Under the pieces are notes generated by a model, which saw only the letters and a program-made list of their open reading frames with translations, made no database searches and was not told the DNA's origin. 17,183 nucleotides of DNA, taken from NCBI GenBank assembly GCA_964657535.1, contig CAZZVX010000038.1, positions 2,003 to 19,185 on the forward strand. The letters run 5' to 3'. Both the position numbers and the translations under genes were made by a program. This DNA is from Armatimonadota bacterium (GTDB taxonomy: Bacteria; Armatimonadota; Armatimonadia; Armatimonadales; Capsulimonadaceae). Positions 1 to 17,183 of the stretch are shown in pieces (within the stretch, counting starts at the first letter, position 1; each line of letters starts with the position of its first letter).

Positions 1-1179
1 CCTTCCCATCATGCGCCATCCGCTTTGGAGGCGGCGCAGTCCGCCCAAGCCTCGGCGGAGAGCGTCGCGGACGCCCTGACGGTCTCGGAACGGCAGTACC
101 GACGCCTGTTCGAGGCGGCCCGCGACGGCATCCTGCTCCTCGACAGCGACCAGGGCCGGATCACCGACGCCAATCCCTTCATGACGGAACTTCTGGGCTA
201 CTCCCACGCCGAACTGCTGGGCAAGGAGCTCTGGGAGATCGGACTTCTCCAGGATAAGGACGCAAGCCAGGAGGCTTTCCGGCGGCTGCAGCGCGATGAC
301 CACATCCGCTACGAGGACCTGCCGCTCCAGAACCGGCGGGGTGAGCGCCGTGAGGTGGAGTTCGTAAGCAACCTGTACCGCGAGAACGGACACACGGTCA
401 TCCAGTGCAACATCCGCGACATCACCGAGCGAAAGCGCGTAGCAGCGGAACTCGTCGTTGCCACTGCCAAACACGCGCATCAGGACGCCGTGCTGGAAGA
501 GCGCACCCGCCTGGCGCGGGAGATCCATGACACGCTGGCGCAAGGGTTCGCTGGGATCACCACGCAGTTGGAAGCGGCGGAGGCGGCGCTGGCGAACGTA
601 CCCCCATCGGCCTCACCCGACAGTCTTGCCGCCTCCCAAGACCAAGTCGCTGCCTACCAGGCGCAACTGAGCAAGGTCCAGGCCCGTATCGGCAAGGCGC
701 GTGACCTGGCCCGCGAGAGCTTGACCGAGGCAAGGCGGTCCGTCGCGGCACTGCGGTCACCGGCTCTGGAGGCGACCCCCTTGAGCGAGGCCCTCGCACG
801 TTTCCTCACGCAGCGTGTTCTGAACACGGAGGCAAAGAGCCGTTATGTGCTGGAAGGCGTCCCTCACGCGCTGCCCGCCAATGTCGAGCATTATCTGCTG
901 CGGATCGGTCAGGAGGCCATCACGAACGCCGTGGAACACGCGCAGGCCGAGGAGATCGACGTGGTGTTGTCTTTTGAGCCGGGGCGAGTGCGACTGCGCG
1001 TGCACGACGACGGGCGGGGATTCGACCTTCATCGTCCTGGCGCCGGGCGATTCGGAATCATCGGCATGCGGGAGCGAGCGGAGAAAGCCCAGGGACAGCT
1101 GACCATCATCAGCCATCAGGGGAAAGGGACGCAGGTAGACCTGATCGTGCCGATCCCCCAGGAGTCGCTCACAGACTGA
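1..1179 (+). CDS. Sensor histidine kinase, PAS domain + HisKA_3 dimerisation/phosphoacceptor + HATPase_c (NarL-type partner kinase). 5' end truncated by the window edge: the reading frame is open from nt 1 and the first in-frame start seen is a TTG at 25.
   Basis: The translation shows a PAS-like block (SERQYRRLFEAARDGILLLD...GKELWEIGL...REVEFVSNLYRENGHTVIQCNIRDITERKR). It shows an H-box typical of HisKA_3 (EERTRLAREIHDTLAQ). It shows an ATPase N/G-box region (RIGQEAITNAVEHA...RVHDDGRGFD...GRFGIIGMRERA). High GC3 codon bias. The stop TGA at 1177-1179 overlaps the next ATG by 1 nt. Confidence 0.85.
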   Translation, partial: PSHHAPSALEAAQSAQASAESVADALTVSERQYRRLFEAARDGILLLDSDQGRITDANPFMTELLGYSHAELLGKELWEIGLLQDKDASQEAFRRLQRDDHIRYEDLPLQNRRGERREVEFVSNLYRENGHTVIQCNIRDITERKRVAAELVVATAKHAHQDAVLEERTRLAREIHDTLAQGFAGITTQLEAAEAALANVPPSASPDSLAASQDQVAAYQAQLSKVQARIGKARDLARESLTEARRSVAALRSPALEATPLSEALARFLTQRVLNTEAKSRYVLEGVPHALPANVEHYLLRIGQEAITNAVEHAQAEEIDVVLSFEPGRVRLRVHDDGRGFDLHRPGAGRFGIIGMRERAEKAQGQLTIISHQGKGTQVDLIVPIPQESLTD

Positions 1180-1910
1180 TGCAAAGGCCATCAGACAGGA
1201 TGAACGCTCACACGCCCCACATGGAAAATGACGCTATGCTCACTGACAAGACTGCGGCACCCGCCGACGAAGGTGTGACTCCCGGCGCGAGCAGAATCCG
1301 CATCCTGATCGCGGACGACCATCCGGTCGTGCGCGACGGCCTGGCCGGGGTGATCGAGGAGCAGGACGACATGGCCGTGGTCGGGCAGGCCGCCACAGGT
1401 ACTGAGGCGCTCGCCCTCTACGGAGAGCAGTGCCCGGATGTGACTCTGATGGACCTGCGTATGCCGGGGATGAACGGCGTGGAGGCCATCACCGCGATCC
1501 GGCAGCAGGCCCCGGCGGCGCGCGTGATCATCCTAAGTACCTACGACGCCGAGGAGGACATCTACCGCGCCCTGCAGGCGGGGGCCAAAGCCTACTTGCT
1601 TAAGGATGTCGGTCGGCAGGTCCTACTGGAGACCATCCGCGCCGTCCACGCCGGCCAGACTCCGGTTTCCCCGGAGGTGGGGGCGAAAATGGCCGGCCGG
1701 ATCGGCTACGAGCAACTCAGCGACCGGGAACTGGAAGTGCTGCGTCTCCTGGTCAGAGGCATGAGCAACCAGGAGATCGCCGGGGCGCTCTTCATCGCGG
1801 AGAGCACGGTCAAGTTCCACGTCAACCATATCCTCGGCAAACTGAACGCCGCTGACCGCACGCAGGCGGTCATCACGGCGCTCAAACGCGGTCTTGCCAC
1901 CTTGCAGTAG
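1179..1910 (+). CDS. Response regulator, NarL/FixJ (LuxR-type HTH) family: REC domain + C-terminal LuxR HTH.
   Basis: REC signature RIRILIADDHPVVRDGL...VTLMDLRMPGMNGVEA...KAYLLKD. LuxR HTH LSDRELEVLRLLVRGMSNQEIAGALFIAESTVKFHVNHILGKLN. The start is ambiguous: ATG 1179 (TGATG overlap with the kinase stop, RBS-like CAGGAG upstream) or in-frame ATGs at 1200, 1221 and 1236. All keep the REC domain intact. Confidence 0.9.
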   Translation: MQRPSDRMNAHTPHMENDAMLTDKTAAPADEGVTPGASRIRILIADDHPVVRDGLAGVIEEQDDMAVVGQAATGTEALALYGEQCPDVTLMDLRMPGMNGVEAITAIRQQAPAARVIILSTYDAEEDIYRALQAGAKAYLLKDVGRQVLLETIRAVHAGQTPVSPEVGAKMAGRIGYEQLSDRELEVLRLLVRGMSNQEIAGALFIAESTVKFHVNHILGKLNAADRTQAVITALKRGLATLQ

Positions 1911-2828: not shown

Positions 2829-3035
2829 GGAGTCGTTCCCCTGCAATATCGCGAGACACTGACGTCTTCGCATCGCCTGCCCGCACTTGCCCTCTGCCCA
2901 TTCACCGCGCTCAAGCATCAGCCGACGGGTCCGCATGAGAGAATGAAAGAGAGGAGTCATCCCATCGCTTGTGACTAACCCAATTTTACCAGGCAGGCGA
3001 TTGGGCGTCAACCGCCTAGGGTTGGGGAAATAACT

Positions 3036-3126
3036 GACCTTGAGGACGGCCTATGGGCTGTCCTTTTGTCGAGTTGAAAGCCGAACCCCAGACGGGCGAC
3101 AGGACAGACGCCACCTTCCATACTGT
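3036..3126 (+). promoter_or_regulatory. Copy A of a conserved intergenic module of about 90 bp, upstream of the DsbA-like/Usp operon. It contains TTGAGGA, the palindrome GGACGGCC-TATG-GGCTGTCC (3044-3063) + TTTTGT, the perfect 20-mer CCGAACCCCAGACGGGCGAC (3081-3100), and CCATACT (about 3118-3124).
   Basis: Aligns at about 80-85% with 12520-12625, with an identical 20-mer and compensatory changes that preserve the hairpin. It lies 40-80 bp upstream of ATG 3164 in a divergent intergenic region. Confidence 0.55.
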
Positions 3127-3163
3127 ATGTGCATCCATAGAGGAATGAAGATCGATTTTCACC

Positions 3164-3733
3164 ATGACAGAAGCGCCAGATGTGGGACCGAAATCACAAA
3201 TCGTAACGCTGGCCCCGCCGGTCGGTGAGCGTGATCACGCCCAGGGACCCGCCACGGCGGCCATCACCCTCGTCGAGTACGGCGACTACCAGGACCCGCA
3301 GTGCGCCGACGCCCAGCCCAGGATCAAAGCTCTTCAAGACCGAATGGGGGACCGGCTACGTCTGGTGTTCCGGCACTTCCCGGCGACCGGCCACTACCCG
3401 CACGCCGCCGAAGCGGCGGAGGCGGCGGGGCTGCAGGATCGGTTTTGGGCGATGCACGACACGCTCTTTGCGCACCAATCGGCCCTCGGCAATGGTCACT
3501 TGGTCGAATACGCGCACGACCTGGGCCTGGACATCAGCCGGTTCCTGCGGGATATGACCGGGCATGTGTCCGCCGAGCGCCTGCACGCGGATCGGGCCAG
3601 CGGCGCGCAGAGCGGCGTCCGGGACACGCCCGCGTTCTTCGTCAACGGAGTCCGGCAGCCTGGTCTTTGGGACGAGGCCGCCTTCTGGGCGGCTCTCGAA
3701 ACGGCCTGTGCAGAATATCTGAGCGGCGGGTGA
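3164..3733 (+). CDS. DsbA-like thioredoxin-fold protein (Thioredoxin_4/DSBA family). It is cytoplasmic (no signal peptide) and its active site is degenerate: DPQC instead of CxxC.
   Basis: LVEYGDYQDPQCADAQP aligns to the canonical F/Y-GDYQCPxC motif, with the first Cys replaced by Asp. A cis-Pro loop DTPAFFVNG is present. The stop at 3731-3733 lies 16 nt before the usp ATG, so the two genes are probably an operon. Confidence 0.8.
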   Translation: MTEAPDVGPKSQIVTLAPPVGERDHAQGPATAAITLVEYGDYQDPQCADAQPRIKALQDRMGDRLRLVFRHFPATGHYPHAAEAAEAAGLQDRFWAMHDTLFAHQSALGNGHLVEYAHDLGLDISRFLRDMTGHVSAERLHADRASGAQSGVRDTPAFFVNGVRQPGLWDEAAFWAALETACAEYLSGG

Positions 3734-4693: not shown

Positions 4694-5083
4694 ATGACAC
4701 AGCACAAACACAACAGGGCCGACGCCCGGATCCACGCGGGCGTGCGCCAGGAATTGCCCTGGGAGAGACGCGTGGATGAGGCCGAAGTGAAGGTGGCCCA
4801 GGGGCCTGGAATACGAGCCGTCGTGAATGGCCTCCGGTCTTGTAATCCTGTCTTTGTGTGCTTCCCGGAACAGAATGGTGCCGCAACGACAGACGACATG
4901 GAGACAGCAGAAGGCGTTCCGAGAGGCGAACGCCGGACCATGTGCGACGGCCCCGGCTGCCGCGCCGAGTCGGTGCAGGTCGACGGATGGCTCTTCGTGG
5001 GTCGTGGCGGGGAGCGCCGTCACTACTGCCGCGCGTGTCTGGTGTCATACCTGGACGGGCTTCGCGGGCCGTCGGCATCATAG
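4694..5083 (+). CDS. Hypothetical small protein (129 aa) with a C-terminal Cys4 zinc-ribbon-like motif (CDGPGC...CRAC). May be shorter, starting at the internal METAEG.
   Basis: The ORF has AAAGGA 8 nt upstream of its ATG. The C-x4-C...C-x2-C spacing is seen in the translation. GC3 is moderate to high. Several overlapping frames are open here, so the assignment is tentative. Confidence 0.35.
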   Translation: MTQHKHNRADARIHAGVRQELPWERRVDEAEVKVAQGPGIRAVVNGLRSCNPVFVCFPEQNGAATTDDMETAEGVPRGERRTMCDGPGCRAESVQVDGWLFVGRGGERRHYCRACLVSYLDGLRGPSAS

Positions 5084-6557: not shown

Positions 6558-7600
6558 ATGGAGGCGGCATGACGCACGACTGGCTGAACACCGCCTGGTT
6601 CGTTGTCCTCGGCGCGTTGCTGATCGGCTATGCCATCCTGGACGGCTTCGATCTGGGAATCGGGACGCTGCACTTTGTTCTGGGCCGGAGCGGCGCGGAG
6701 CGGCGCACGAGCCTGGATGTCATCGGCCCCTTCTGGTTCGGCTATGAGGTCTGGCTCCTGGTGGCGGGCGGCTCGATGGTCGCGGCGTTCCCCCGCCTGT
6801 ACGCGGCGAGTTTCAGCGGCTTCTACCTGGTGCTGATGGTCGTCCTGTGGCTGCTCATCGGGCGGGGAACGGCCATCGAGTTCCGCTCCCAGGTCGCCGA
6901 CCCGCTGTGGCGCGGCTTCTGGGACTTCGCCTTCTGCGCCAGCAGCTTTCTTCTGGCCGTGCTGTTCGGCGCGGCGGTCGGAAACGTGGTTCGGGGCGTG
7001 CCGCTGGACGCTTCGGGGAATTTCCAGGGATCATTCACACTCGCCCTGAACCCATTCGCCATCCTCGTCGGCCTCCTCAGCGCCGCGCTGCTGGCGATGC
7101 ATGGGGCGAACTATCTCGCCTTCAAGACGGAGGGCGCCCAGCAGGGGCAGGCGCGGCTGTGGGCGCGGCGACTCGGACCGGTGGTCGCCGTCCTCGCCAT
7201 CCTCGCGACGGTGTCCGCGTTCTTCGTCCGGGGCGGCCTCGGGGCGAACTTCGCCCGCCACCCGTTCCTGCTCGGCCTGCCCCTGCTGGCCGTGGTCGCT
7301 TTCGTCGTAATGTCCCTGTCCCAGCGCCGGGCCGAGGACGGCCGGGCCGTCGGCGCGGGGGCCGTCTTCCTGGCCGCACTGATGGGGTCGGCAGGGGCTG
7401 GCCTGTATCCGTTACTGCTGCCGACACTTGGGCAGTCGGGGCAGGGACTGTCGGCCTTCAACTCCTCCGCGCCCCGTCACACACTGGAAACGGCCCTCGT
7501 CGTCAATGTGGTGATGATGGGCATCGTGATCGCCTACAACCTTTACATCCATCGCGTCTTCCGTGGCGCCGTGCGCGGGCTGGGCGAACACGGACACTGA
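6554..7600 (+). CDS. cydB: Cytochrome bd ubiquinol oxidase subunit II.
   Basis: The translation [39 protein letters not shown] shows the CydB N-terminal signature. A GGAGG precedes an alternative in-frame ATG at 6569. The track ORF 6113..7600 is an upstream out-of-context extension that overlaps cydA. Confidence 0.9.
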   Translation: [348 protein letters not shown]

Positions 7601-8669: not shown

Positions 8670-8749
8670 GTCGGGGGCGACACCCCGGCTGAACCGCATT
8701 GGCCGTGGGAAACGCGGCTTCGAGTGTGGATACTGGGAGGAGAGACACG

Positions 8750-8992
8750 ATGCGAACATCCGCTGACCATGACGCGCGAACAAAGTCAGACTGTTCCGCC
8801 GGGGAGGAGGCCACCCTGTTCCTCGCCGGCCGCACGGCTCCTGCCGGCACATACCGACTGGTGGAGACCGACCGGGAAGTGCGACTGGACCAGGACGGCG
8901 TCCTGCCCGCGACCTGCGACGGCCGCATCGCCGTCTATGAACGCCGCGCGCCGACCTGGTCGGAGATGCAGGACCGTGGGGAGCAAGCCTGA
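8750..8992 (+). CDS. Hypothetical small protein (80 aa).
   Basis: RBS GGGAGGAGAG 6 nt upstream of the ATG. GC3 is about 78% across the ORF. No recognisable family. Confidence 0.4.
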   Translation: MRTSADHDARTKSDCSAGEEATLFLAGRTAPAGTYRLVETDREVRLDQDGVLPATCDGRIAVYERRAPTWSEMQDRGEQA

Positions 8993-9024
8993 CGCCTGCA
9001 AGACTCAAGTGGTGGGAGCGGGCT

Positions 9025-9480
9025 GTGAGACGGGGGCATCCCGTTTCGCCCGCGATAGAGAAATGCGGCCGGAATGAAGACTGGAAAACAGAAGTGACGA
9101 CTGGAATCAGCAGGGATGGAATCAGGAACGATGGCTTCAAAAGCCACGGCGGGAGGAATGGGGGCCGGGGCGATGAGGACAGACATCCCGATCTGACGGT
9201 CTCCGTGTTCCTCCGGACCGACTTGGTGCGAAGCCTGGAAGCACACGCGGAGAAGGACAGGCCGGGGACGATCCCGGCAGCACTTGAGGAGCGGATACGG
9301 TCACTGTACCCCGGCGCGGTGGTCTCGGTGCAAGTGATCCCCCTCCTCGACAGCGAGTGGGAGGTCCAGATCGGCGAGATGGGTCGGAGCCGAATGGGTG
9401 GTGCCGACCGCGAGGTTATTGAGCGGCGCCTGCGGTCGGTGGTCGAGGAGGCCGTCACCCGGTTCCGTGGGCCAGCCTGA
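9025..9480 (+). CDS. Hypothetical protein. The start is uncertain (GTG 9025 with GGGAG upstream, or in-frame GTGs at 9094 and 9205). The conserved-looking core is the C-terminal about 90 aa.
   Basis: The C-terminal part (TVSVFLRTDLVRSLEAHAEK...VVSVQVIPLLDSEWEVQIGEMG...VVEEAVTRFRG) has high GC3. The N-terminal 60 codons are low-complexity and lower in GC, and may be non-coding. The stop lies 11 nt before the VIT gene RBS. Confidence 0.35.
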   Translation: MRRGHPVSPAIEKCGRNEDWKTEVTTGISRDGIRNDGFKSHGGRNGGRGDEDRHPDLTVSVFLRTDLVRSLEAHAEKDRPGTIPAALEERIRSLYPGAVVSVQVIPLLDSEWEVQIGEMGRSRMGGADREVIERRLRSVVEEAVTRFRGPA

Positions 9481-9491
9481 GAGGAAAACAG

Positions 9492-10190
9492 ATGCCTCAG
9501 ACCCCGCACGTTGAGAAACACTTCACGTCCACGGAAGCCGTCCGCGACATCGTGATCGGGATGTCGGACGGCCTGACCGTGCCGTTCGCCCTCGCCGCCG
9601 GACTGACCGGCGTCGTCGCCGCCTCGCACATCATCGTCACGGCGGGACTCGCCGAAGTCGCCGCCGGCTCCATCGCGATGGGCCTGGGCGGCTACCTGGC
9701 GGCGCGGGGCGACGCGGAGCATTACGCCAGCGAGCGGAAGCGGGAGCAGCGCGAGGTCCAGACCCTGCCAGACGTGGAGGCGCGCGAAGTCGCTGAGGTC
9801 TTTCAGTCCTACGGGCTGACAGCCGAAGAAAGCGCCCCGCTGGTGGCGGCCCTGCAGCAGAGGCCCGAAGCCTATGTGGACTTCATGATGCGGTTCGAGC
9901 TGGGCCTGGAAGAACCGGACCCGAAGCGCGCCCTGACCAGTGCGCTGACCATCGCCGGGGCCTACGTCACGGGCGGCCTCATCCCGCTCTGCCCGTACTT
10001 CCTGCTGCGGCAGGCGCACACCGCGCTGCTCTGGTCCGTCTTCGTGACTCTAGCGGCGTTGGTCGTGTTCGGCTTCTTCAAGGCGCGGGCCACGGGCGCT
10101 GCGCCTGTCCGGGGGGCCGTGCAGACTGTCGTGATCGGCGGCCTCGCAGCCGCTGCGGCTTTTCTGATCGCGCGGTTGTTCTCAGGTTGA
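9492..10190 (+). CDS. VIT1/CCC1-family (vacuolar iron transporter-like) Fe/Mn transporter.
   Basis: The translation shows an N-terminal cytoplasmic region, a DGLTVPFALAAGLTG helix, a central acidic linker and C-terminal TM helices, as in PF01988. The RBS GAGAGGAAAACAG is upstream. Confidence 0.85.
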   Translation: MPQTPHVEKHFTSTEAVRDIVIGMSDGLTVPFALAAGLTGVVAASHIIVTAGLAEVAAGSIAMGLGGYLAARGDAEHYASERKREQREVQTLPDVEAREVAEVFQSYGLTAEESAPLVAALQQRPEAYVDFMMRFELGLEEPDPKRALTSALTIAGAYVTGGLIPLCPYFLLRQAHTALLWSVFVTLAALVVFGFFKARATGAAPVRGAVQTVVIGGLAAAAAFLIARLFSG

Positions 10191-10293: not shown

Positions 10294-11316
10294 ATGAAAG
10301 CAATGGTCCTACTTAAACCCGGCCCTGTGGAGAATACCCCCCTGCGGCTCCTGGAACTGCCCAGGCCCGATCCGGGACCGGGCGAGGTTCTGATCCGGGT
10401 CGAGGTCTGCGGCGTCTGCCGGACCGATCTGCACGTCGTCGAGGGCGAACTGACCCCGCACTTGCAGCCGATCATCCCCGGACATGAGATCGTCGGGCGC
10501 GTCGCGGAACGTGGCCCGGATGCGCAGCGCTTCGCCGAGGGCGACCGGGTCGGCGTCGCCTGGCTGGGCGGCACGGACGGCGCCTGTCCCTACTGCCTGC
10601 GCGGCGACGAGAACCTCTGCGACGCCCCCGCGTTCACGGGCTATGACCGCAACGGCGGCTATGCTGAATACGCGGTCGCCCGCGAAGACTTTGTCTACCC
10701 GCTGCCGGGGGAAGTCTCTTCCCGCGAGGCCGCCCCGTTCCTGTGCGCCGGCATCATCGGCTACCGGGCGCTGCAGCGGGCGGAACTTCCGGCGGGGGAA
10801 CCATTGGGTCTGTACGGCTTCGGCGCGTCCGCTCACATCCTGATCCAAATCGCCCGCCATCAGGGCAGCGATGTCTATGTCTGCACGCGCGAACCGCGCC
10901 ACCAGGCGCTCGCCCGCGAACTCGGCGCGGCTTGGGCCGGCGGGGCCGACGAGATGCCGCCGATCAAACTGCGGAGCAGCATCCTCTTCGCGCCCGCCGG
11001 CCCGCTCGTCCTGCCCGCCCTGGCTGCCCTGGATAAAGGCGGGACGCTGTCCCTGGCCGGTATCTACATGACGCCGATTCCCGAAATGGATTACCACAAA
11101 TATCTGTTCCGAGAACACAGCCTCCGCAGCGTCACAGCCAACACGCGCCGGGACGGACACGCCTTGCTCCAACTCGCCGCCGAGATCCCTTTGCACGCAC
11201 AGACGACGGAGTTTCCTCTCGGACAGGCCAACGAGGCCCTCCAGGCCCTCAAGCACGACGAGATCAGCGGCGCGGCCGTCCTCCGCGTCTTTACCCCAGT
11301 CGAGAGCGATCCATGA
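10294..11316 (+). CDS. Zinc-dependent alcohol dehydrogenase (MDR superfamily).
   Basis: CGVCRTDLHVVEGE and GHEIVGRV catalytic-Zn motifs. A structural-Zn Cys cluster C-x2-C-x...C. A GxGxxA cofactor loop LYGFGASAH. The RBS GGAGAG is 5 nt upstream. The stop overlaps the next ATG (ATGA). Confidence 0.9.
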   Translation: MKAMVLLKPGPVENTPLRLLELPRPDPGPGEVLIRVEVCGVCRTDLHVVEGELTPHLQPIIPGHEIVGRVAERGPDAQRFAEGDRVGVAWLGGTDGACPYCLRGDENLCDAPAFTGYDRNGGYAEYAVAREDFVYPLPGEVSSREAAPFLCAGIIGYRALQRAELPAGEPLGLYGFGASAHILIQIARHQGSDVYVCTREPRHQALARELGAAWAGGADEMPPIKLRSSILFAPAGPLVLPALAALDKGGTLSLAGIYMTPIPEMDYHKYLFREHSLRSVTANTRRDGHALLQLAAEIPLHAQTTEFPLGQANEALQALKHDEISGAAVLRVFTPVESDP

Positions 11317-12461
11317 CTTTGTCCACGACACGACCAACATCGCCCACTCCCCGAAACCTCAGCCGCCGCCGGTTCCTCGCGGCTGCCGCCGCCGTGGGAA
11401 CGACTGCCGCGCTCGGCGACGCCCTGGTGACGTATGCGCCCTGGCTGGACTATAACGCGCAGGTGCGGCGGACCTGGGACACCCCGTTCCAAACGAAGGC
11501 GACCGTGACTACACAAATGCGGGAACTCGTCCGTTATGCGACACTCGCCCCCAGCGGGCATAACACGCAGCCCTGGAAATTTATGATCCTTGAGGGAGCG
11601 GTCCGCATCCTTCCCGACTACTCCCGGCATCTGCCGGTGATCGACCCGCTGGGCCGTGAACTCTGGATCAGCCTGGGGTGCGCCCTGGAAAACATGGAGA
11701 TTGCGGCGCAGAACGCGGGGTACGGAACAGAGATCACCTACCCGACTCAGGACGCGGACTTTCTCACTCTCCACCTGCGAACGATGCCTGTCCGCAGCCC
11801 CGCCCCTCTTGCGGACGCGATTCCCCACCGACAAAGCACTCGCTCCCCGTATGACGGACACGCGGTCCCACTCGCGGAGATGCGAAAGATCGAGAACACG
11901 GTACCTGTGCCGGGCGTCTCGCTACAGATTCTGACGGCCTCCGACCAGAAAGAGGCCGTCATTGAGTACATCAAATCAGCCGATCAACGCCAGTACGGCA
12001 ATCAAGCCTTCGTGAACGAGTTGGTCTCCTGGCTTCGCTTCAACAAACCGGAAGCGCTGCATAGTCTGGATGGCTTGTATACGCACTGTTCCGGCAACCC
12101 GGAAATCCCGCGCTGGCTGGGAGAGAGATTTATCACAACCGCCAGCGCCGGGCGGCAAAGTGCGACAGATGAGACGAACGTCCGCAGCTCGTCCGGCCTC
12201 ATCGTGATCGCCGCCGCGCAGGACGACAAACGCCATTGGATCGAGACCGGGCGGCTGTACGAACGTCTTGCTCTTACCATAACATCCCTCGGCATCAAGA
12301 CGGCGTTCATCAACCAGCCGTTGGAGGTCCCCGCCCTGCGCTCCCAGTTCCAGGGATACCTGAACCTCGGCACGGCGCAACCGCAGCTGCTTCTGCGATT
12401 CGGATACGCGGCCCCGATGCCGCGCTCCCTGCGGCGTCCCGTCGAGCAGGTCCTTGCCTGA
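11313..12461 (+). CDS. Tat-signal nitroreductase-family protein (Acg/Rv2032-like putative nitroreductase).
   Basis: Twin-arginine motif SRRRFLAAAAAVGTTAALG at the N-terminus. Nitroreductase-like blocks (ATLAPSGHNTQPW, LGCALENM). Translationally coupled to the alcohol dehydrogenase. Confidence 0.85.
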   Translation: MTLSTTRPTSPTPRNLSRRRFLAAAAAVGTTAALGDALVTYAPWLDYNAQVRRTWDTPFQTKATVTTQMRELVRYATLAPSGHNTQPWKFMILEGAVRILPDYSRHLPVIDPLGRELWISLGCALENMEIAAQNAGYGTEITYPTQDADFLTLHLRTMPVRSPAPLADAIPHRQSTRSPYDGHAVPLAEMRKIENTVPVPGVSLQILTASDQKEAVIEYIKSADQRQYGNQAFVNELVSWLRFNKPEALHSLDGLYTHCSGNPEIPRWLGERFITTASAGRQSATDETNVRSSSGLIVIAAAQDDKRHWIETGRLYERLALTITSLGIKTAFINQPLEVPALRSQFQGYLNLGTAQPQLLLRFGYAAPMPRSLRRPVEQVLA

Positions 12462-12507: not shown

Positions 12508-12519
12508 CCTAGCCGAAAG

Positions 12520-12625
12520 TTGAGGAAGCAGCCTGATCTGAAGGACAGCCTACAGGCTGTTCATTTGTCTTGCTGAAATCCGAACCCCAGACGGGCGACG
12601 GAACTGCCGCCACCCCCCATACTTG
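12520..12625 (+). promoter_or_regulatory. Copy B of the conserved module, upstream of the BON-domain gene. It contains TTGAGGA, the palindrome GGACAGCC-TACA-GGCTGTTC (12543-12562) + ATTTGTCTTG, the identical 20-mer CCGAACCCCAGACGGGCGAC (12580-12599), and CCATACT (12617-12623).
   Basis: See copy A. It lies about 110-190 bp upstream of ATG 12737. It is preceded by a separate weak hairpin + T6 tract (12483-12507) that probably terminates the adh-nitroreductase operon. Confidence 0.55.
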
Positions 12626-12736
12626 GAACGGTGGATCACCCTCCATCAATGGATTCCATTAGACATGGGCCGCGGGAACGCAGGCACCGCAACGCAGGGT
12701 CCTTTCAACTTAAGCCTGCCAAAGAGGTTAATGACT

Positions 12737-13390
12737 ATGACGAGTGATTCTCAACTACAGAGTGATGTTCTGGCGGAGCTGCAGTGGCAGCCCAGCGTGA
12801 ACGCGGCACACATCGGAGTCGCCGCGAAAGAAAACGTCGTGACTCTCACGGGCCAAGTCGCCCACTACGCGGAAAAGTCAGCGGCGGAAGAGGCGGCCAT
12901 AGGCGTCTACGGTGTCAAGGCCGTCGCCAACGACATCCAGGTCGAACTGTTTGGCATAGGTCGTCGTACCGATCAGGACATCGCGCAGGCGGCACTCAGC
13001 GCCCTGGACTGGGACTTCGAGGTGCCGACGGACAAGGTCAAAGTCGTCGTGAAGGACGGCCACGTCATCCTGGAAGGCAATGTGGACTGGCAATACCAGA
13101 AAGACGCTGCCAAGCGCTGCGTCCAGTACCTGATGGGCGTCACGGCGGTGAGCAACCTGATCGCCATTGAGCCAAAGGTGAAGTGGGCTGACGTCCAGGC
13201 TGAGATCGAAGGCGCGTTCCGCCGCAGCGCGGACCTGGACGCCAGGCGGATCGGGGTCGACACCTATGCCGGCACGGTGACGCTGAGCGGGACGGTCTCT
13301 TCCTGGGCTGAGCGGGACGAAGCCGTGACGGCCGCCTGGGGCGCACCGGGCGTGACCTCCGTCAATGACCAGCTCGCAGTCGCTTATTAA
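12737..13390 (+). CDS. BON-domain protein (OsmY-like, two BON repeats).
   Basis: Repeated BON pattern (VTLTGQVAHYAEKSAAEEAA..VKAVANDIQV and VILEGNVDWQYQKDAAKRCVQYLMGVTAVSNLI..., then VTLSGTVSSWAERDEAVTAAWGAPGVTSVNDQL). The RBS AAAGAGG is 9 nt upstream of ATG 12737. An ATG at 12731 is an alternative. Confidence 0.8.
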   Translation: MTSDSQLQSDVLAELQWQPSVNAAHIGVAAKENVVTLTGQVAHYAEKSAAEEAAIGVYGVKAVANDIQVELFGIGRRTDQDIAQAALSALDWDFEVPTDKVKVVVKDGHVILEGNVDWQYQKDAAKRCVQYLMGVTAVSNLIAIEPKVKWADVQAEIEGAFRRSADLDARRIGVDTYAGTVTLSGTVSSWAERDEAVTAAWGAPGVTSVNDQLAVAY

Positions 13391-13399
13391 CGCAGTCCT

Positions 13400-13440
13400 G
13401 TTTCCAGAGACGCTCACGATAAGGGGGCGTCCCTGGAAAC
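13400..13440 (+). terminator. Long inverted repeat (14-bp arms, 1 mismatch, 13-nt loop) immediately after the BON gene stop. Candidate intrinsic terminator or operator upstream of the second usp.
   Basis: gtttccagagacgc-tcacgataagggg-gcgtccctggaaac. Followed by ttgcccc, so the U-tract is weak. Confidence 0.35.
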
Positions 13441-13511
13441 TTGCCCCGGTTTCGGCCCGATGCCGGCGGCTAACTCAGAGCGTGGGGCGAGCGACAGGAA
13501 GAGAAAGACAT

Positions 13512-14007: not shown

Positions 14008-14985
14008 ATGAAATCGACGAGTTCTTTATCGGTACTGGTATTTATTGTCATCCTGGGCGCCGGCCTCGGAATATCCTTCGCCATGCGCGGCGCTTCACTG
14101 CACTGGCCGAGCATCGCAGCCGGCGTGCTGGCGTTCATCCTGGCGACGGTCGTGTCTTCGGCAGTTCAAGTTGCCAATCAGTGGGACAAGGCGGTGGTCC
14201 TGCGCATGGGGCGTTTCCAGGCGCTGCGCGGTCCGGGCCTGTTCTTCATCGTCCCGGTTGTGGACGCAATTGCTTACTGGATCGACACGCGGGTGATCAC
14301 GATGTCGTTCAAGGCAGAGAAGACGCTCACCAAGGATACGGTGCCGGTGGACGTGGACGCCGTCCTGTTCTGGAAGGTCCTGGACCCGCAAAAGGCGGCC
14401 CTGGACGTGGCGGACTACCAGGCGGCTGTCGGCTGGGCGTGCCAGACGGCCCTGCGCGACGTTATCGGCAAGACGATGCTCGCGGATATGCTGGAGGGCC
14501 GGGACCAGATCAGCGCGCAGTTGCAGAAGATTATCGATGTGCGCACGGAACCCTGGGGCATCACGGTCATCTCCGTGGAAGTCAAGGACGTCCTGATCCC
14601 GCCTTCGCTGGAGAGTGCGATGTCTATGCAGGCTCAGGCGGAGAGGGAGCGGCAGGCGCGTGTGATCCTGGGCGACTCGGAGCGTCAGGTGGCAGAGAAG
14701 TTTGGGGAGGCGTCTAAGACCTATGCCAACAACCCAGTGGCCTTCCACCTGCGGGCGATGAATATGCTCTACGAAGGCTTGAAGCAAAACTCAACCATCG
14801 TGATCGTCCCAAGCACGGCGGTGGAGTCCATGCAGCTCGGCGGTCTGGCCGGCCTCACCGCGCTGACGATGGGGATCGGGCAGGAAAGCGCGAAACGCGA
14901 GCCGATCCTGCCGCTGTCTGGTGCGGAAGCCCCCACGCCGACGGGGAACGGATTGACTTCAACAAACGGCGTTGGTTCAACATAA
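14008..14985 (+). CDS. SPFH/band-7 (stomatin/prohibitin-like) membrane protein.
   Basis: N-terminal TM segments. PHB-domain core (WDKAVVLRMGRFQALRGPGLFFIVPVVDAIAYWIDTRVITMSF...DVDAVLFWKVLDP). A C-terminal coiled-coil-like region (AQAERERQARVILGDSERQVAEKFGEA). The RBS GGGAG is upstream of ATG 14008. Confidence 0.88.
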   Translation: MKSTSSLSVLVFIVILGAGLGISFAMRGASLHWPSIAAGVLAFILATVVSSAVQVANQWDKAVVLRMGRFQALRGPGLFFIVPVVDAIAYWIDTRVITMSFKAEKTLTKDTVPVDVDAVLFWKVLDPQKAALDVADYQAAVGWACQTALRDVIGKTMLADMLEGRDQISAQLQKIIDVRTEPWGITVISVEVKDVLIPPSLESAMSMQAQAERERQARVILGDSERQVAEKFGEASKTYANNPVAFHLRAMNMLYEGLKQNSTIVIVPSTAVESMQLGGLAGLTALTMGIGQESAKREPILPLSGAEAPTPTGNGLTSTNGVGST

Positions 14986-15014: not shown

Positions 15015-17183
15015 ATGAACGTACCCACTTTAGCGCCGGATATACAGTACCCAAACGGCAGCCGCGATCAGGAAATTACCCCTCAGCCAGGGACTCTGAA
15101 CCCGGATGAACTGCGTCGGACTGATGCCTACTGGCGGGCCGCCAACTACCTGTCGGTCGGCCAGATATACCTGTACGACAACCCGCTGCTGAAGCGGCCT
15201 CTGGCGCTCACGGACGTCAAGCATATGCTGCTGGGACACTGGGGGACGACGCCCGGACAGAACTTCATCTACACCCACCTGAACCGGGTCATCAAGAAGT
15301 ACGACCTGGATATGATCTACGTCTCCGGCCCCGGACACGGCGGCCCCGCCGTCGTGAGCGGCACGTACCTGGAAGGCACCTACAGCGAGGTCTATCCCAA
15401 CATCAGTCAGGACGAGGCCGGTCTGCGCAAACTGTTCAAGCAATTCTCGTTCCCCGGCGGCATCCCCAGCCACGCCTCGCCGGAGACGCCCGGCTCGATC
15501 CATGAGGGCGGCGAACTGGGCTATTCGCTTAGCCATTCGTTCGGGGCCGTGTTCGACAACCCCGAACTCGTCGTCGCCTGCGTCGTCGGCGACGGCGAGG
15601 CGGAGACCGGGCCGCTCGCCACGGCCTGGCACTCCAACAAGTTTTTGGACCCCGTCACCGACGGCGCGGTGCTGCCCATTTTGCACCTCAACGGCTACAA
15701 AATTTCCAATCCGACCCTGCTGGCCCGCATCAGCCGCGAGGAACTGGAACAACTGCTGCGCGGCTACGGGTGGACGCCGTATTTCGTGGAGGGCCATGAA
15801 CCGGACCGGATGCACGAGGCGATGGCCGCGACTCTTGATACGGCGGTGGCGCAGATTAAACAAATCCAGCAGGACGCCCGCAGTCAAGGGAACACGACGC
15901 GCCCGCACTGGCCGATGATCGTATTGCGTTCCCCCAAAGGCTGGACGGGGCCGAAGATGGTAGATGGCCTGCAAGTAGAAGGCACCTTCCGCGCGCACCA
16001 GGTGCCGCTTTCCGACCCGGCCACCCACCCCGAACACCTGGCACTGCTGGAAGAGTGGCTGCGGAGCTATCGGCCTGAAGAACTCTTCAACGCGGAGGGC
16101 CACCTGCTGCCGGAACTGGCCGAACTCGCACCGACGGGCGAGCGGCGCATGGGCGCGAACCCGCACGCCAACGGCGGCCTCCTGCTGCGCGACCTGCGGA
16201 TGCCGGACTTCAACGACTACGCGCTCCCTGTGCCGACGCCGGGGGCCGGCGGCCCCGGCGACACGCACATTCTGGGCAGGTTCCTGCGCGATGTGGTGAA
16301 ACTGAACGACGCGCAGAAGAACTTCCGCGTCTTCGGCCCGGACGAGACGCTGTCCAACGGACTGGAAGCGCTGTTCGAGGCGACCGAGCGCCAGTGGGAC
16401 GCGGCGACCGCGCCGAACGACGAATGGCTCGCGCCGACGGGCCGCGTGATGGAGGTGCTGAGCGAACACCAGTGCGAGGGCTGGCTGGAAGGCTACCTGC
16501 TCACCGGGCGGCACGGGCTGTTCAACTGCTATGAGGCGTTCATCCACATCGTGGACTCGATGTTCAACCAGCACGCCAAGTGGCTGAAGGTGACGTCGCG
16601 CCTGCCGTGGCGGCGGCCCATCGCGAGCCTCAACTACCTGCTGGCCTCGCACGTCTGGCGTCAGGACCACAACGGCTTCACCCATCAAGACCCCGGCTTC
16701 CTGGACCACGTCGTCAACAAAAAGGCTGAAGTGGTGCGCGTCTACCTGCCGCCGGACGCTAACTGCCTGCTGTCGGTGATGGACCACTGCCTGCGCAGCC
16801 GCCACTACGTCAATGTCGTGGTCGCGGGCAAGCACCCCGCGCCGCAGTGGCTGACGATGGATGCCGCCGTCAAGCACTGCACCGAGGGCATCGGCATCTG
16901 GCAGTGGGCGAGCAATGACCAGGAAGCCGAACCCGACGTGGTCATGGCCTGCTGCGGCGACGTGCCGACGCTGGAGACGCTCGCTGCCGTCTCGATCCTG
17001 CGCGAGCGCCTGCCCGACTTGAAGGTGCGGGTGGTCAACGTCGTGGATCTGATGCGGCTTCAGCCGCAGACCGAACACCCGCACGGCCTGAGCGACAGGG
17101 ACTTCGACGGGCTGTTCACCACGAACAAGCCGGTCATCTTCGCCTTCCACGCCTACCCCTGGCTGATCCACCGGCTGACCTAC
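15015..17183 (+). CDS. xfp: Xylulose-5-phosphate/fructose-6-phosphate phosphoketolase (TPP-dependent), 3'-truncated by the window end (723 codons present, no stop).
   Basis: The + strand frame is open from ATG 15015 to the window end, with RBS GAGGAG upstream. The translation contains phosphoketolase signatures ([62 protein letters not shown]). It is absent from the supplied track only because it has no stop. The 713-aa minus-strand ORF 15030..17171 is its antisense shadow. Confidence 0.9.

Follow-up and report, generated by a model that had tools for sequence, protein, structure and literature searches.

The stretch of DNA studied here (17,183 nt of contig CAZZVX010000038.1 from an Armatimonadota bacterium of the family Capsulimonadaceae, hereafter the window) carries two copies, A and B, of an intergenic block of about 105 bp. 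As for its genes, the layout was established by Pfam and NCBIfam searches, together with a frame check at the 3' end of the window. A PAS-domain sensor histidine kinase and a NarL/LiaR-type response regulator are followed by two small genes on the − strand and by copy A. Downstream of copy A, a run of + strand genes encodes a DsbA-like protein, tandem universal stress proteins (USPs), cytochrome bd I and II, a 2-hydroxyacid dehydrogenase, a VIT protein and an alcohol dehydrogenase, and ends with an Acg-family FMN (flavin mononucleotide) oxidoreductase/nitroreductase (NF047509, 8e-89). Copy B comes next and precedes a second + strand run composed of BON, USP, SPFH and phosphoketolase genes, the last of which leaves the window. 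Each copy sits at the head of a long co-directional gene run; an earlier, sequence-only reading of this DNA had likewise placed both ahead of + strand genes (DsbA-like at 3164, BON at 12737). We read the window as two long predicted operons, with their boundary at 12543-12623.

The two copies form a sharply bounded repeat. A repeat finder returned a 91-nt ungapped direct repeat with 80% identity (3034-3124 versus 12533-12623), within which in-register 30-nt windows are 77-83% identical, as against 7-40% outside. This abrupt drop at both flanks shows that the block is a bounded element and no part of a larger duplication. When weaker 5' similarity is counted, copy A extends over ~3019-3124 and copy B over ~12515-12623 (Table 1). 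A perfectly conserved 20-mer, CCGAACCCCAGACGGGCGAC, occurs at exactly two sites in the window (3081 and 12580), with no further site even at three mismatches (chance expectation 0.01), and both copies end in CCATACT (3118-3124 and 12617-12623). The duplicated module with its 20-mer, as described in the sequence-only reading, is thereby confirmed, except for a TTGAGGA box said to be shared. The two TTGAGGA occurrences occupy non-homologous positions. That of copy A (3040-3046) overlaps the hairpin, that of copy B (12520-12526) precedes its hairpin by 23 nt, and what really corresponds to the copy A box in copy B is CTGAAGGA. Overall, copies A and B share 78% identity with each other, whereas each shares 80-84% with copies from other genomes; more generally, copies of one genome are as diverged as copies of different genomes (55-84%). 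Because the window copies resemble foreign copies at least as much as each other, the duplication is old and has been maintained. A recent segmental duplication, which would have undermined the idea of a functional module, is contradicted by the fall of identity to random levels at the flanks.

Table 1. Coordinates of the block, its parts and the adjoining genes in the window.
Feature	Position	Strand	Basis and remarks
PAS + HisKA_3 + HATPase_c sensor histidine kinase	25..1179	+	Pfam; presumed upstream sensor
NarL/LiaR-type response regulator (Response_reg + GerE)	1179..1910	+	Pfam; start probably 1236; presumed activator
Copy A, whole cassette	3019..3124	+	nhmmer profile, E=6e-28; upstream of DsbA-like/USP/cytochrome bd operon
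CTGACC box (CTGAYC in most copies)	3034..3039	+	Conserved column block, alignments A2 and A3
Hairpin A, GGACGGCC-TATG-GGCTGTCC (8-4-8, one G.U)	3044..3063	+	Inverted-repeat search; RNA fold
T-tract TTTTGTC, directly 3' of hairpin A	3064..3070	+	TTT (near-)invariant in A2 and A3
20-mer CCGAACCCCAGACGGGCGAC, −35-proximal element, copy A	3081..3100	+	3' GGGCGAC at 3094-3100; candidate activator docking site
−35-like hexamer GCGACA, copy A	3096..3101	+	4/6 match to TTGACA; 17 nt before the −10
−10 hexamer CATACT, copy A	3119..3124	+	YATAMT column in 15/15 copies; predicted start near 3130-3132
DsbA-like thioredoxin-fold protein, first gene after copy A	3164..3733	+	Pfam
Copy B, whole cassette	12515..12623	+	nhmmer, E=1e-29; between Acg-type nitroreductase stop (12461) and BON start (12737)
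Hairpin B, GGACAGCC-TACA-GGCTGTTC (8-4-8, one G.U)	12543..12562	+	Inverted-repeat and terminator scans; RNA fold
T-tract ATTTGTC, copy B	12563..12569	+	Sequence reading; copy B unit flagged by terminator scan
20-mer CCGAACCCCAGACGGGCGAC, −35-proximal element, copy B	12580..12599	+	GGGCGAC at 12593-12599; −35-like GCGACG at 12595-12600
−10 hexamer CATACT, copy B	12618..12623	+	Predicted start near 12629-12631
Triple-BON (OsmY-like) protein, first gene after copy B	12737..13390	+	Pfam, NCBIfam; homologues 217 aa

Relatives were found via homologues of the DsbA-like, BON and regulator proteins, and then through the contigs that encode them (L-numbers below designate these ~20-kb loci or contigs, L025 being Capsulimonas corticalis). 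There are 15 copies of the block in ~10 genomes or metagenome contigs, with one to three copies per locus in profile searches covering ~20 kb per genome. All 15 are intergenic and oriented toward the downstream gene, which encodes a DsbA-like, BON, USP, SPFH, PRC, HMA or short-chain dehydrogenase (SDR) protein. The block lies directly 3' of the PAS-kinase/NarL-type regulator operon in six genomes (L004, L006, L009, L010, L011 and C. corticalis), all of which show the kinase in synteny with it. It separates the regulator gene from the DsbA-like gene in L004, L009, L010 and L011, and from an unknown 342-aa gene in L006; orthologues of the DsbA-like gene are found 3' of the module in L004, L009, L010, L011 and L025. 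C. corticalis, a cultured species (genome AP025739.1, locus 7107824-7128504), has three copies within 2.3 kb: M1, which starts 16 nt after the regulator stop codon and precedes the DsbA-like gene, M2, ahead of a PRC-domain gene, and M3, ahead of an SPFH gene. Two copies are present in L016, before BON and before SPFH. A scan of metagenomes with a degenerate pattern returned four contigs only, including L012, L013 and L015, where the block precedes a USP gene, an HMA/CopZ-like gene and a short-chain dehydrogenase gene, respectively; so few contigs do not suffice to delimit a regulon. That the block is kept at both orthologous and non-orthologous sites in ~10 genomes or contigs bears out the view, already taken in the sequence-only reading, that it was retained for a function rather than duplicated neutrally.

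Several observations concern the surroundings of individual copies. In L013, Met-rich repeat open reading frames (ORFs; MGGMT repeats, 12113-12448 and 12975-13454) and a cupredoxin-like gene flank the module, which, together with the HMA/CopZ-like gene, places the block in a copper-handling context as well. An insertion sequence (DDE_Tnp_1/DUF4096 ORFs, 1113-1942) is found just upstream of the BON module in L017, a contig otherwise identical to L016. Immediately 5' of M2, after the DsbA-like gene, C. corticalis has a hairpin with a 15-bp stem, GGCGATGACCTAACC-ACGA-GGTTAGGTCATCGCC (L025 11364-11396). In L009, a tandem near-repeat, ATAGGACAGCCGATTATGA / ATAGACAGCCGGTTATGA, which includes the hairpin half-site AGGACAGCC, lies where the alcohol dehydrogenase gene ends, ahead of a P-type ATPase gene (17900-17945).

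The distribution of the block has clear limits. No further or partial modules were found before other island genes by profile searches of the ~20-kb loci at E<=10, and the hairpin and the GGGCGAC-N18-YATACT unit are not shared by other intergenic regions. A scan for the exact 20-mer in 185,579 species genomes (one per species), a search akin to the genome-wide one that the sequence-only reading had proposed as a way of finding extra copies, gave only two chance matches in coding regions of unrelated metagenome-assembled genomes. The exact 20-mer was therefore rejected as the conserved unit; although identical in both window copies, it is specific to this genome, and only GGGCGAC plus a few adjacent bases are invariant across relatives. 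The module is missing from BON orthologues of another lineage (81% identity, L020-L024) and from L027, which has a 65%-identical regulator with a PAS-GAF kinase. It is thus lineage-restricted, and not tied to the BON or regulator genes. We also considered RCGGGCGAC as a stand-alone regulator motif and discarded it, since it occurs by chance two to four times per 20 kb inside genes; L027 has a single intergenic match, which is uninterpretable given this rate. L027 also shows, downstream of its regulator gene, an intergenic DosR-like palindrome, GGACCGTCAGGTCC (10929-10942), and GGCGGGCGAC ~45 nt before the next gene (11105-11114).

An alignment of all 15 copies (A3), on which the statements about columns are based, reveals a common anatomy. 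From 5' to 3', a weakly conserved segment, GGAAGTTGAGG ... CCTGAYC, is followed by a hairpin (A-GGACRGCC/loop/GGCYGTCC-T), the T-tract TTTTGTC, 23 moderately conserved nt, an invariant GGGCGAC, 18 nt (19 in L011) and a YATAMT hexamer. The CTGACC box, which ends 4 nt ahead of the hairpin, is similar to the right hairpin arm. These parts are held in a fixed register. In 14 of the 15 copies, i.e., in every copy with a right arm, 30 nt separate the hairpin end from GGGCGAC, and M3, which has lost this arm, retains the register of the left one. Conservation stops abruptly after YATAMT.

The 3' third of the block resembles a promoter. The final hexamer reads CATACT in 12 copies, TATACT in two and CATAAT in one, with A2, T3, A4 and T6 invariant, and is close to the TATAAT of sigma-70-type −10 elements. 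The GCGACA that overlaps GGGCGAC precedes it by 17 nt in 14 of the 15 copies and by 18 nt in L011. GCGACA-N17-CATACT matches the consensus at 8 of 12 positions, and the window copies fall under the 9-of-12 threshold of the promoter scanner; a core promoter this weak is what would be expected of activator dependence. Beyond YATAMT, the leaders that reach to the start codons (5 to ~190 nt) are gene-specific and unalignable across genes, the BON and SPFH/PRC leaders having conserved blocks of their own. In M1, just 5 nt separate CATACT from the ATG annotated for the DsbA-like gene, which is the geometry of a leaderless mRNA. The hexamer variants, the abrupt end of conservation and this short distance all uphold the proposal of the sequence-only reading that CCATACT harbors a −10 box. 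In our reading, a predicted weak sigma-70-type core promoter makes up the 3' third of the block, with starts expected near 3130-3132 and 12629-12631.

Related signals are present elsewhere in these loci. A conserved sequence, CTTGTCATACA, is found upstream of the PAS-kinase/regulator operon at L009 7820, L011 7836 and L025 7256, where it recurs inverted near 7164; its position in C. corticalis is 5' of a PAS-SpoIIE gene that precedes the kinase/regulator operon. It has the appearance of an extended −10 (TGnCATACA) or of an autoregulatory site, and the occurrence of CATACA with an upstream TGn before the regulator operons of L009, L011 and L025 suggests that a CATAC-type −10 is usual in this lineage. 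As for the leaders, the BON 5' leader contains a conserved hairpin-like block, CGCGGGAACGCAGGCACCGCG (window 12667-12695, L016 ~310-340 and L020 ~9935-9965), which has no Rfam match and is present even in L020, from a module-less lineage; it may be a gene-specific RNA element. The SPFH/PRC-gene leaders share CCTCTCAAATTCCACGCAGCCGGGTGCGTCGCAGG, with a CGCA...TGCG stem (L011 ~10893-10927, L016 ~8822-8856, L025 ~13092-13126 and L006 ~10790-10825), for which no Rfam match was obtained in L011, L016 and L025, L006 being outside that scan.

The hairpin has the structure of an intrinsic terminator. The 8-4-8 inverted repeats, each followed by a T-rich run, that the sequence-only reading reported are present in both window copies. 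They fold on the + strand with −16.9 kcal/mol (z = −4.4) for A and −12.8 kcal/mol (z = −3.1) for B, and more weakly on the − strand (−11.8 and −9.1 kcal/mol, respectively); + strand stems range from −9.1 to −22.5 kcal/mol across all copies. A standard pair occupies 93% of the helix cells in the 15 copies, while pairing drops to 31-64% when the 3' partner is slid by one to three columns. Single deviations are mostly G.U on the + strand, and the loop is free in sequence and 3-6 nt long, with the stem retained. Base changes on both sides are seen at two pairs: pair 5 is A-U in seven copies, G-C in four and G.U in two, while pair 7, C-G in 11 copies, is U-A in M1. The compensatory changes that had been claimed for the window copies are in fact two single changes between A and B, each yielding a G.U wobble, so covariation was overstated from the window alone and gains modest support once relatives are added. 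The T-tract is conserved in 14 of the 15 copies and lost in M3. This combination of a stem-loop and an immediate T-tract is that of intrinsic terminators (copy B was flagged by a terminator scan), and a co-directional gene ends ~0-220 nt upstream in at least 11 of the 15 copies, copy B following the stop codon of the Acg gene.

The regulator encoded next to the block is the presumed activator. Its closest solved structures are VraR/LiaR, ChrA, NarL and DevR, and its DNA-binding domain is nearest to that of LiaR/VraR. It is 85% identical to the C. corticalis regulator BDI34106, and its recognition helix, ESTVKFHVxH, is conserved across the genomes that carry the module and is different in the 65%-identity group that lacks it.

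Taking these findings together, we propose, with a probability of about 0.5, that the block is an insulated, activator-dependent promoter cassette of the sigma-70 type, belonging to a hypoxia/dormancy-type stress island in Capsulimonas-like Armatimonadota. The GC-rich hairpin and its T-tract would act in the RNA as a Rho-independent terminator, halting read-through from upstream, whether from the constitutively needed kinase/regulator operon or from a preceding stress operon. GGGCGAC, within a conserved ~20-bp element at ~−52 to −31, would dock the phosphorylated NarL/LiaR-type regulator, which, bound over the poor −35 (GCGACA), would recruit RNA polymerase as class II activators do. Transcription would then start ~6-7 nt downstream of the YATAMT −10. 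On this scheme, copy A would start the operon that runs from the DsbA-like, USP and cytochrome bd genes to the Acg gene, and copy B would both end this operon and start the BON/USP/SPFH/phosphoketolase operon. The proposal builds on the observed anatomy, fixed register, conservation in relatives, orientation rule and sharp 3' boundary at the −10; termination, the sigma-70-type promoter, and the identity and binding position of the activator are what we infer. The promoter part is the firmer one and we regard it as probable, while the binding-site assignment is tentative. Among the three candidates of the sequence-only reading (a terminator plus promoter cassette, a dimeric operator and a structured RNA leader), the first is the best fitting.

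Some findings sit uneasily with a purely structural terminator joined to such a promoter. The −35-proximal element, a tentative site for a dimeric regulator, is only a weak dyad. Covariation in the stem is modest, and 13 of 500 shuffles equal it. The stem, GGACRGCC/GGCYGTCC, is near-invariant although the DsbA-like proteins are only 61-82% identical, which is unusual for a hairpin under structural constraint alone, and the hairpin keeps a constant 30-nt distance to the −35 element. The gene upstream of copy A is divergent and not co-directional, and a terminator there would block only antisense or spurious read-through. Lastly, M3 (L025 12903-12922) combines the upstream box and the left arm into a perfect 20-bp palindrome, GCCTGTCC-TTAA-GGACAGGC, without right arm or T-tract, an arrangement that pure terminator logic does not predict and that could either have arisen by template switching or reflect a role as operator. 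The near-invariant arms, the fixed 30 nt, the context of copy A and M3 suggest that the arms are also read as DNA sequence, i.e., that they may be contacted by a protein in a dual role. In its full form, this idea would make the hairpin both an RNA terminator and a DNA binding array (GGACRG/CYGTCC arms, CTGWCC and TTGTC) for the phosphorylated regulator, and the ~105-bp block a portable insulator, operator and promoter unit copied before new operons; we consider it possible, but doubtful as it stands.

The same features could also mean that the palindrome is mainly a DNA operator, its likeness to a terminator being incidental or secondary. A regulator dimer would bind GGACRGCC-N4-GGCYGTCC near −77, maybe together with the flanking CTGWCC and TTGTC, and activate the weak promoter from an upstream position, which is how LiaR acts at PliaI. 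LiaR protects −76 to −52 of the strictly LiaR-dependent sigma-A promoter PliaI, and up to −89 when phosphorylated (PMC7191749), which by analogy makes an operator at ~−87 to −68 plausible. The dimeric operator at −60 to −80 that the sequence-only reading had envisaged agrees in position with this palindrome, whose center is at ~−77 from the predicted start and which may be bound in this way. Five GAC/GTC triplets at conserved columns of the module, the affinity of the regulator's DNA-binding domain to LiaR/VraR, the near-invariance of the arm sequence beyond pairing in 14 of the 15 copies, and GGACAG within the M3 palindrome all speak for an operator. The one-sided and strongly conserved T-tract, however, would be left unexplained, and the arms tend to co-vary (at pair 5, A-U to G-C, in four copies and at pair 7, C-G to U-A, in M1) with single deviations that are mostly + strand wobbles, which fits base pairing better than independent half-sites. 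The inner spacing, moreover, is off by 1 nt in L010 and L012 (both error-prone assemblies), and GGAC and GTCC are 12 nt apart instead of 4 (DosR) or 5-6 (LiaR box). The LiaR motif itself, searched as T(X)4C(X)4G(X)4A or ATAcGAC-N5-GTCtTAT upstream of the −35 (PMC7191749), is conserved at no column of A3, with at most 3 of the 15 copies sharing a position. We therefore regard a palindrome that is mainly an operator as rather unlikely.

The remaining explanations fit less well. The promoter might be served by an alternative sigma factor, such as a partner-switching general-stress sigma, with GGGCGAC as −35 and CCCCATACT as −10 and with the regulator acting indirectly. GGGCGAC and the pyrimidine-rich run before ATACT are indeed more conserved than is usual in sigma-70 promoters, the gene set is like a general stress regulon, and the same islands encode PAS-SpoIIE PP2C phosphatases, an RsbW-like HATPase_c_2 protein and YflT. 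This is nevertheless improbable, because the −10 variants drift toward TATAAT, as for the housekeeping sigma, CATACA occurs with an extended-10 TG upstream of the regulator operons, no sigma factor gene is present in any locus examined, and the motif is, to our knowledge, unlike the consensus of sigma-B/F (GTTT-N-GGGTAT) or extracytoplasmic function sigma factors (GGAAC-N-CGT). Even less probable is a structured RNA (leader, riboswitch or attenuator) transcribed from farther upstream, in which the hairpin and its U-tract would be a regulated terminator. Partial complementarity of the CTGWCC box to the left arm, which becomes perfect in M3, would allow an alternative hairpin, and RNAalifold proposes a second, weak helix; this helix extends across the putative −35, and most of its pairs are G.U. 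As a general feature, however, antiterminator pairing between the box and the left arm was rejected because of constant A.A and C.C mismatches in most copies of A3. The predicted start falls 3' of the conserved block, whose last element is the −10-like hexamer instead of a ribosome-binding site or a start codon, and the leaders below it are gene-specific. Copy A also lacks an upstream co-directional promoter or gene, and only 16 nt separate M1 from the regulator stop codon. An Rfam scan, also proposed in the sequence-only reading, gave no match to either module in the window at E<=1 or to those of L009, L011, L016 and L025 at gathering score, where it returned two tRNAs only. As for a neutral repeat, a mobile-element remnant or a recent segmental duplication, the two or three occurrences per locus and the insertion sequence beside the L017 copy might have hinted at one. 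Such an origin is hardly credible for a block with sharp boundaries, unrelated flanks and no terminal inverted repeats seen, whose copies (one to three per ~20-kb locus) are all intergenic and co-oriented with the downstream gene, are conserved at the orthologous post-regulator site in six genomes, and diverge within genomes as much as between them. The insulated, activator-dependent promoter cassette is thus the reading that we retain.

Other features of the window are worth recording. A strong − strand consensus promoter with an extended-10 TG (TTGACG-17-TAAAAT, 2983-3011) adjoins the 5' edge of copy A and drives the divergent 118-aa gene. The gaps before cydA and before the VIT gene, in which no module or other obvious promoter is present, are filled by ORFs without a Pfam match at 4694-5083, with a Cys-rich C-terminal segment, and at 8699-9480, respectively. 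The phosphoketolase gene (XFP-like, 15015-17183, + strand) continues past the window end; a 713-aa − strand ORF that overlaps it (15030-17171) has no Pfam match and was rejected as spurious. Within the SPFH coding region, Rfam gave a sub-threshold match to the ASdes small RNA (14270-14328, 26.8 bits versus a gathering score of 40), which is probably due to chance.

The cassette provides a testable regulon marker for a DosR-like hypoxia/dormancy island and, for annotation, marks the operon boundaries in such islands. In the literature that we searched, no cis-regulatory logic is described for Armatimonadota and nothing on regulation in Capsulimonas, and the occurrence of the cassette in cultured C. 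corticalis (AP025739.1) makes the open questions directly testable. A sequence-conserved hairpin in register with an activator-dependent promoter would illustrate promoter insulation in nature. Were the hairpin also an operator, one palindrome would serve both RNA and DNA functions and, should this dual role prove true, the block would be a portable unit recruiting operons into an oxygen/redox stress regulon in Armatimonadota.

Among known systems, the DosR/DevR regulon offers many parallels. DosR recognizes a 20-bp palindrome, TTSGGGACTWWAGTCCCSAA (GGGAC-N4-GTCCC), which overlaps the −35 of Mycobacterium dormancy promoters. Here too, a sensor kinase and a NarL-family regulator adjoin the module, and conserved promoters combine an element over a weak −35 with a TANNNT-type −10 and GGAC/GTCC-type half-sites. 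The gene content is also alike, since the island includes USPs and an Acg-family nitroreductase, together with cytochrome bd and alcohol dehydrogenase, and the DosR-regulon-like set downstream of the modules also counts BON, SPFH and phosphoketolase. In contrast, the consensus GGGAC-N4-GTCCC occurs nowhere in the module, whose half-sites are arranged as GGAC-N12-GTCC, 12 nt apart instead of 4. The kinase has a PAS rather than a GAF domain, the DNA-binding domain of the regulator is nearer to LiaR/VraR than to DevR, the host belongs to Armatimonadota, and a terminator-like hairpin always adjoins the promoter on its upstream side.

The LiaR/VraR systems differ from the module in sequence and half-site spacing, and the signal of LiaR is envelope stress, as against a gene set of the redox/hypoxia type; LiaS, moreover, is not known to have a PAS domain. 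PliaI of Bacillus subtilis is nonetheless comparable as an activator-dependent sigma-A promoter with a far-upstream palindrome (PMC7191749), that of the module being at ~−87 to −68. As in intrinsic terminators, the module has a GC-rich 8-bp stem with a 3-6-nt loop and an immediate T-tract, on the strand of the upstream gene. However, unlike in ordinary terminators, its stem is conserved in sequence across genera, stands at a fixed 30 nt from the promoter element and is present in copy A, where no upstream gene is co-directional. The cassette is therefore a lineage-specific instance of a familiar type of element, a regulon promoter with an upstream terminator, whose unusual feature is the fixed-register and sequence-conserved coupling of terminator hairpin and promoter.

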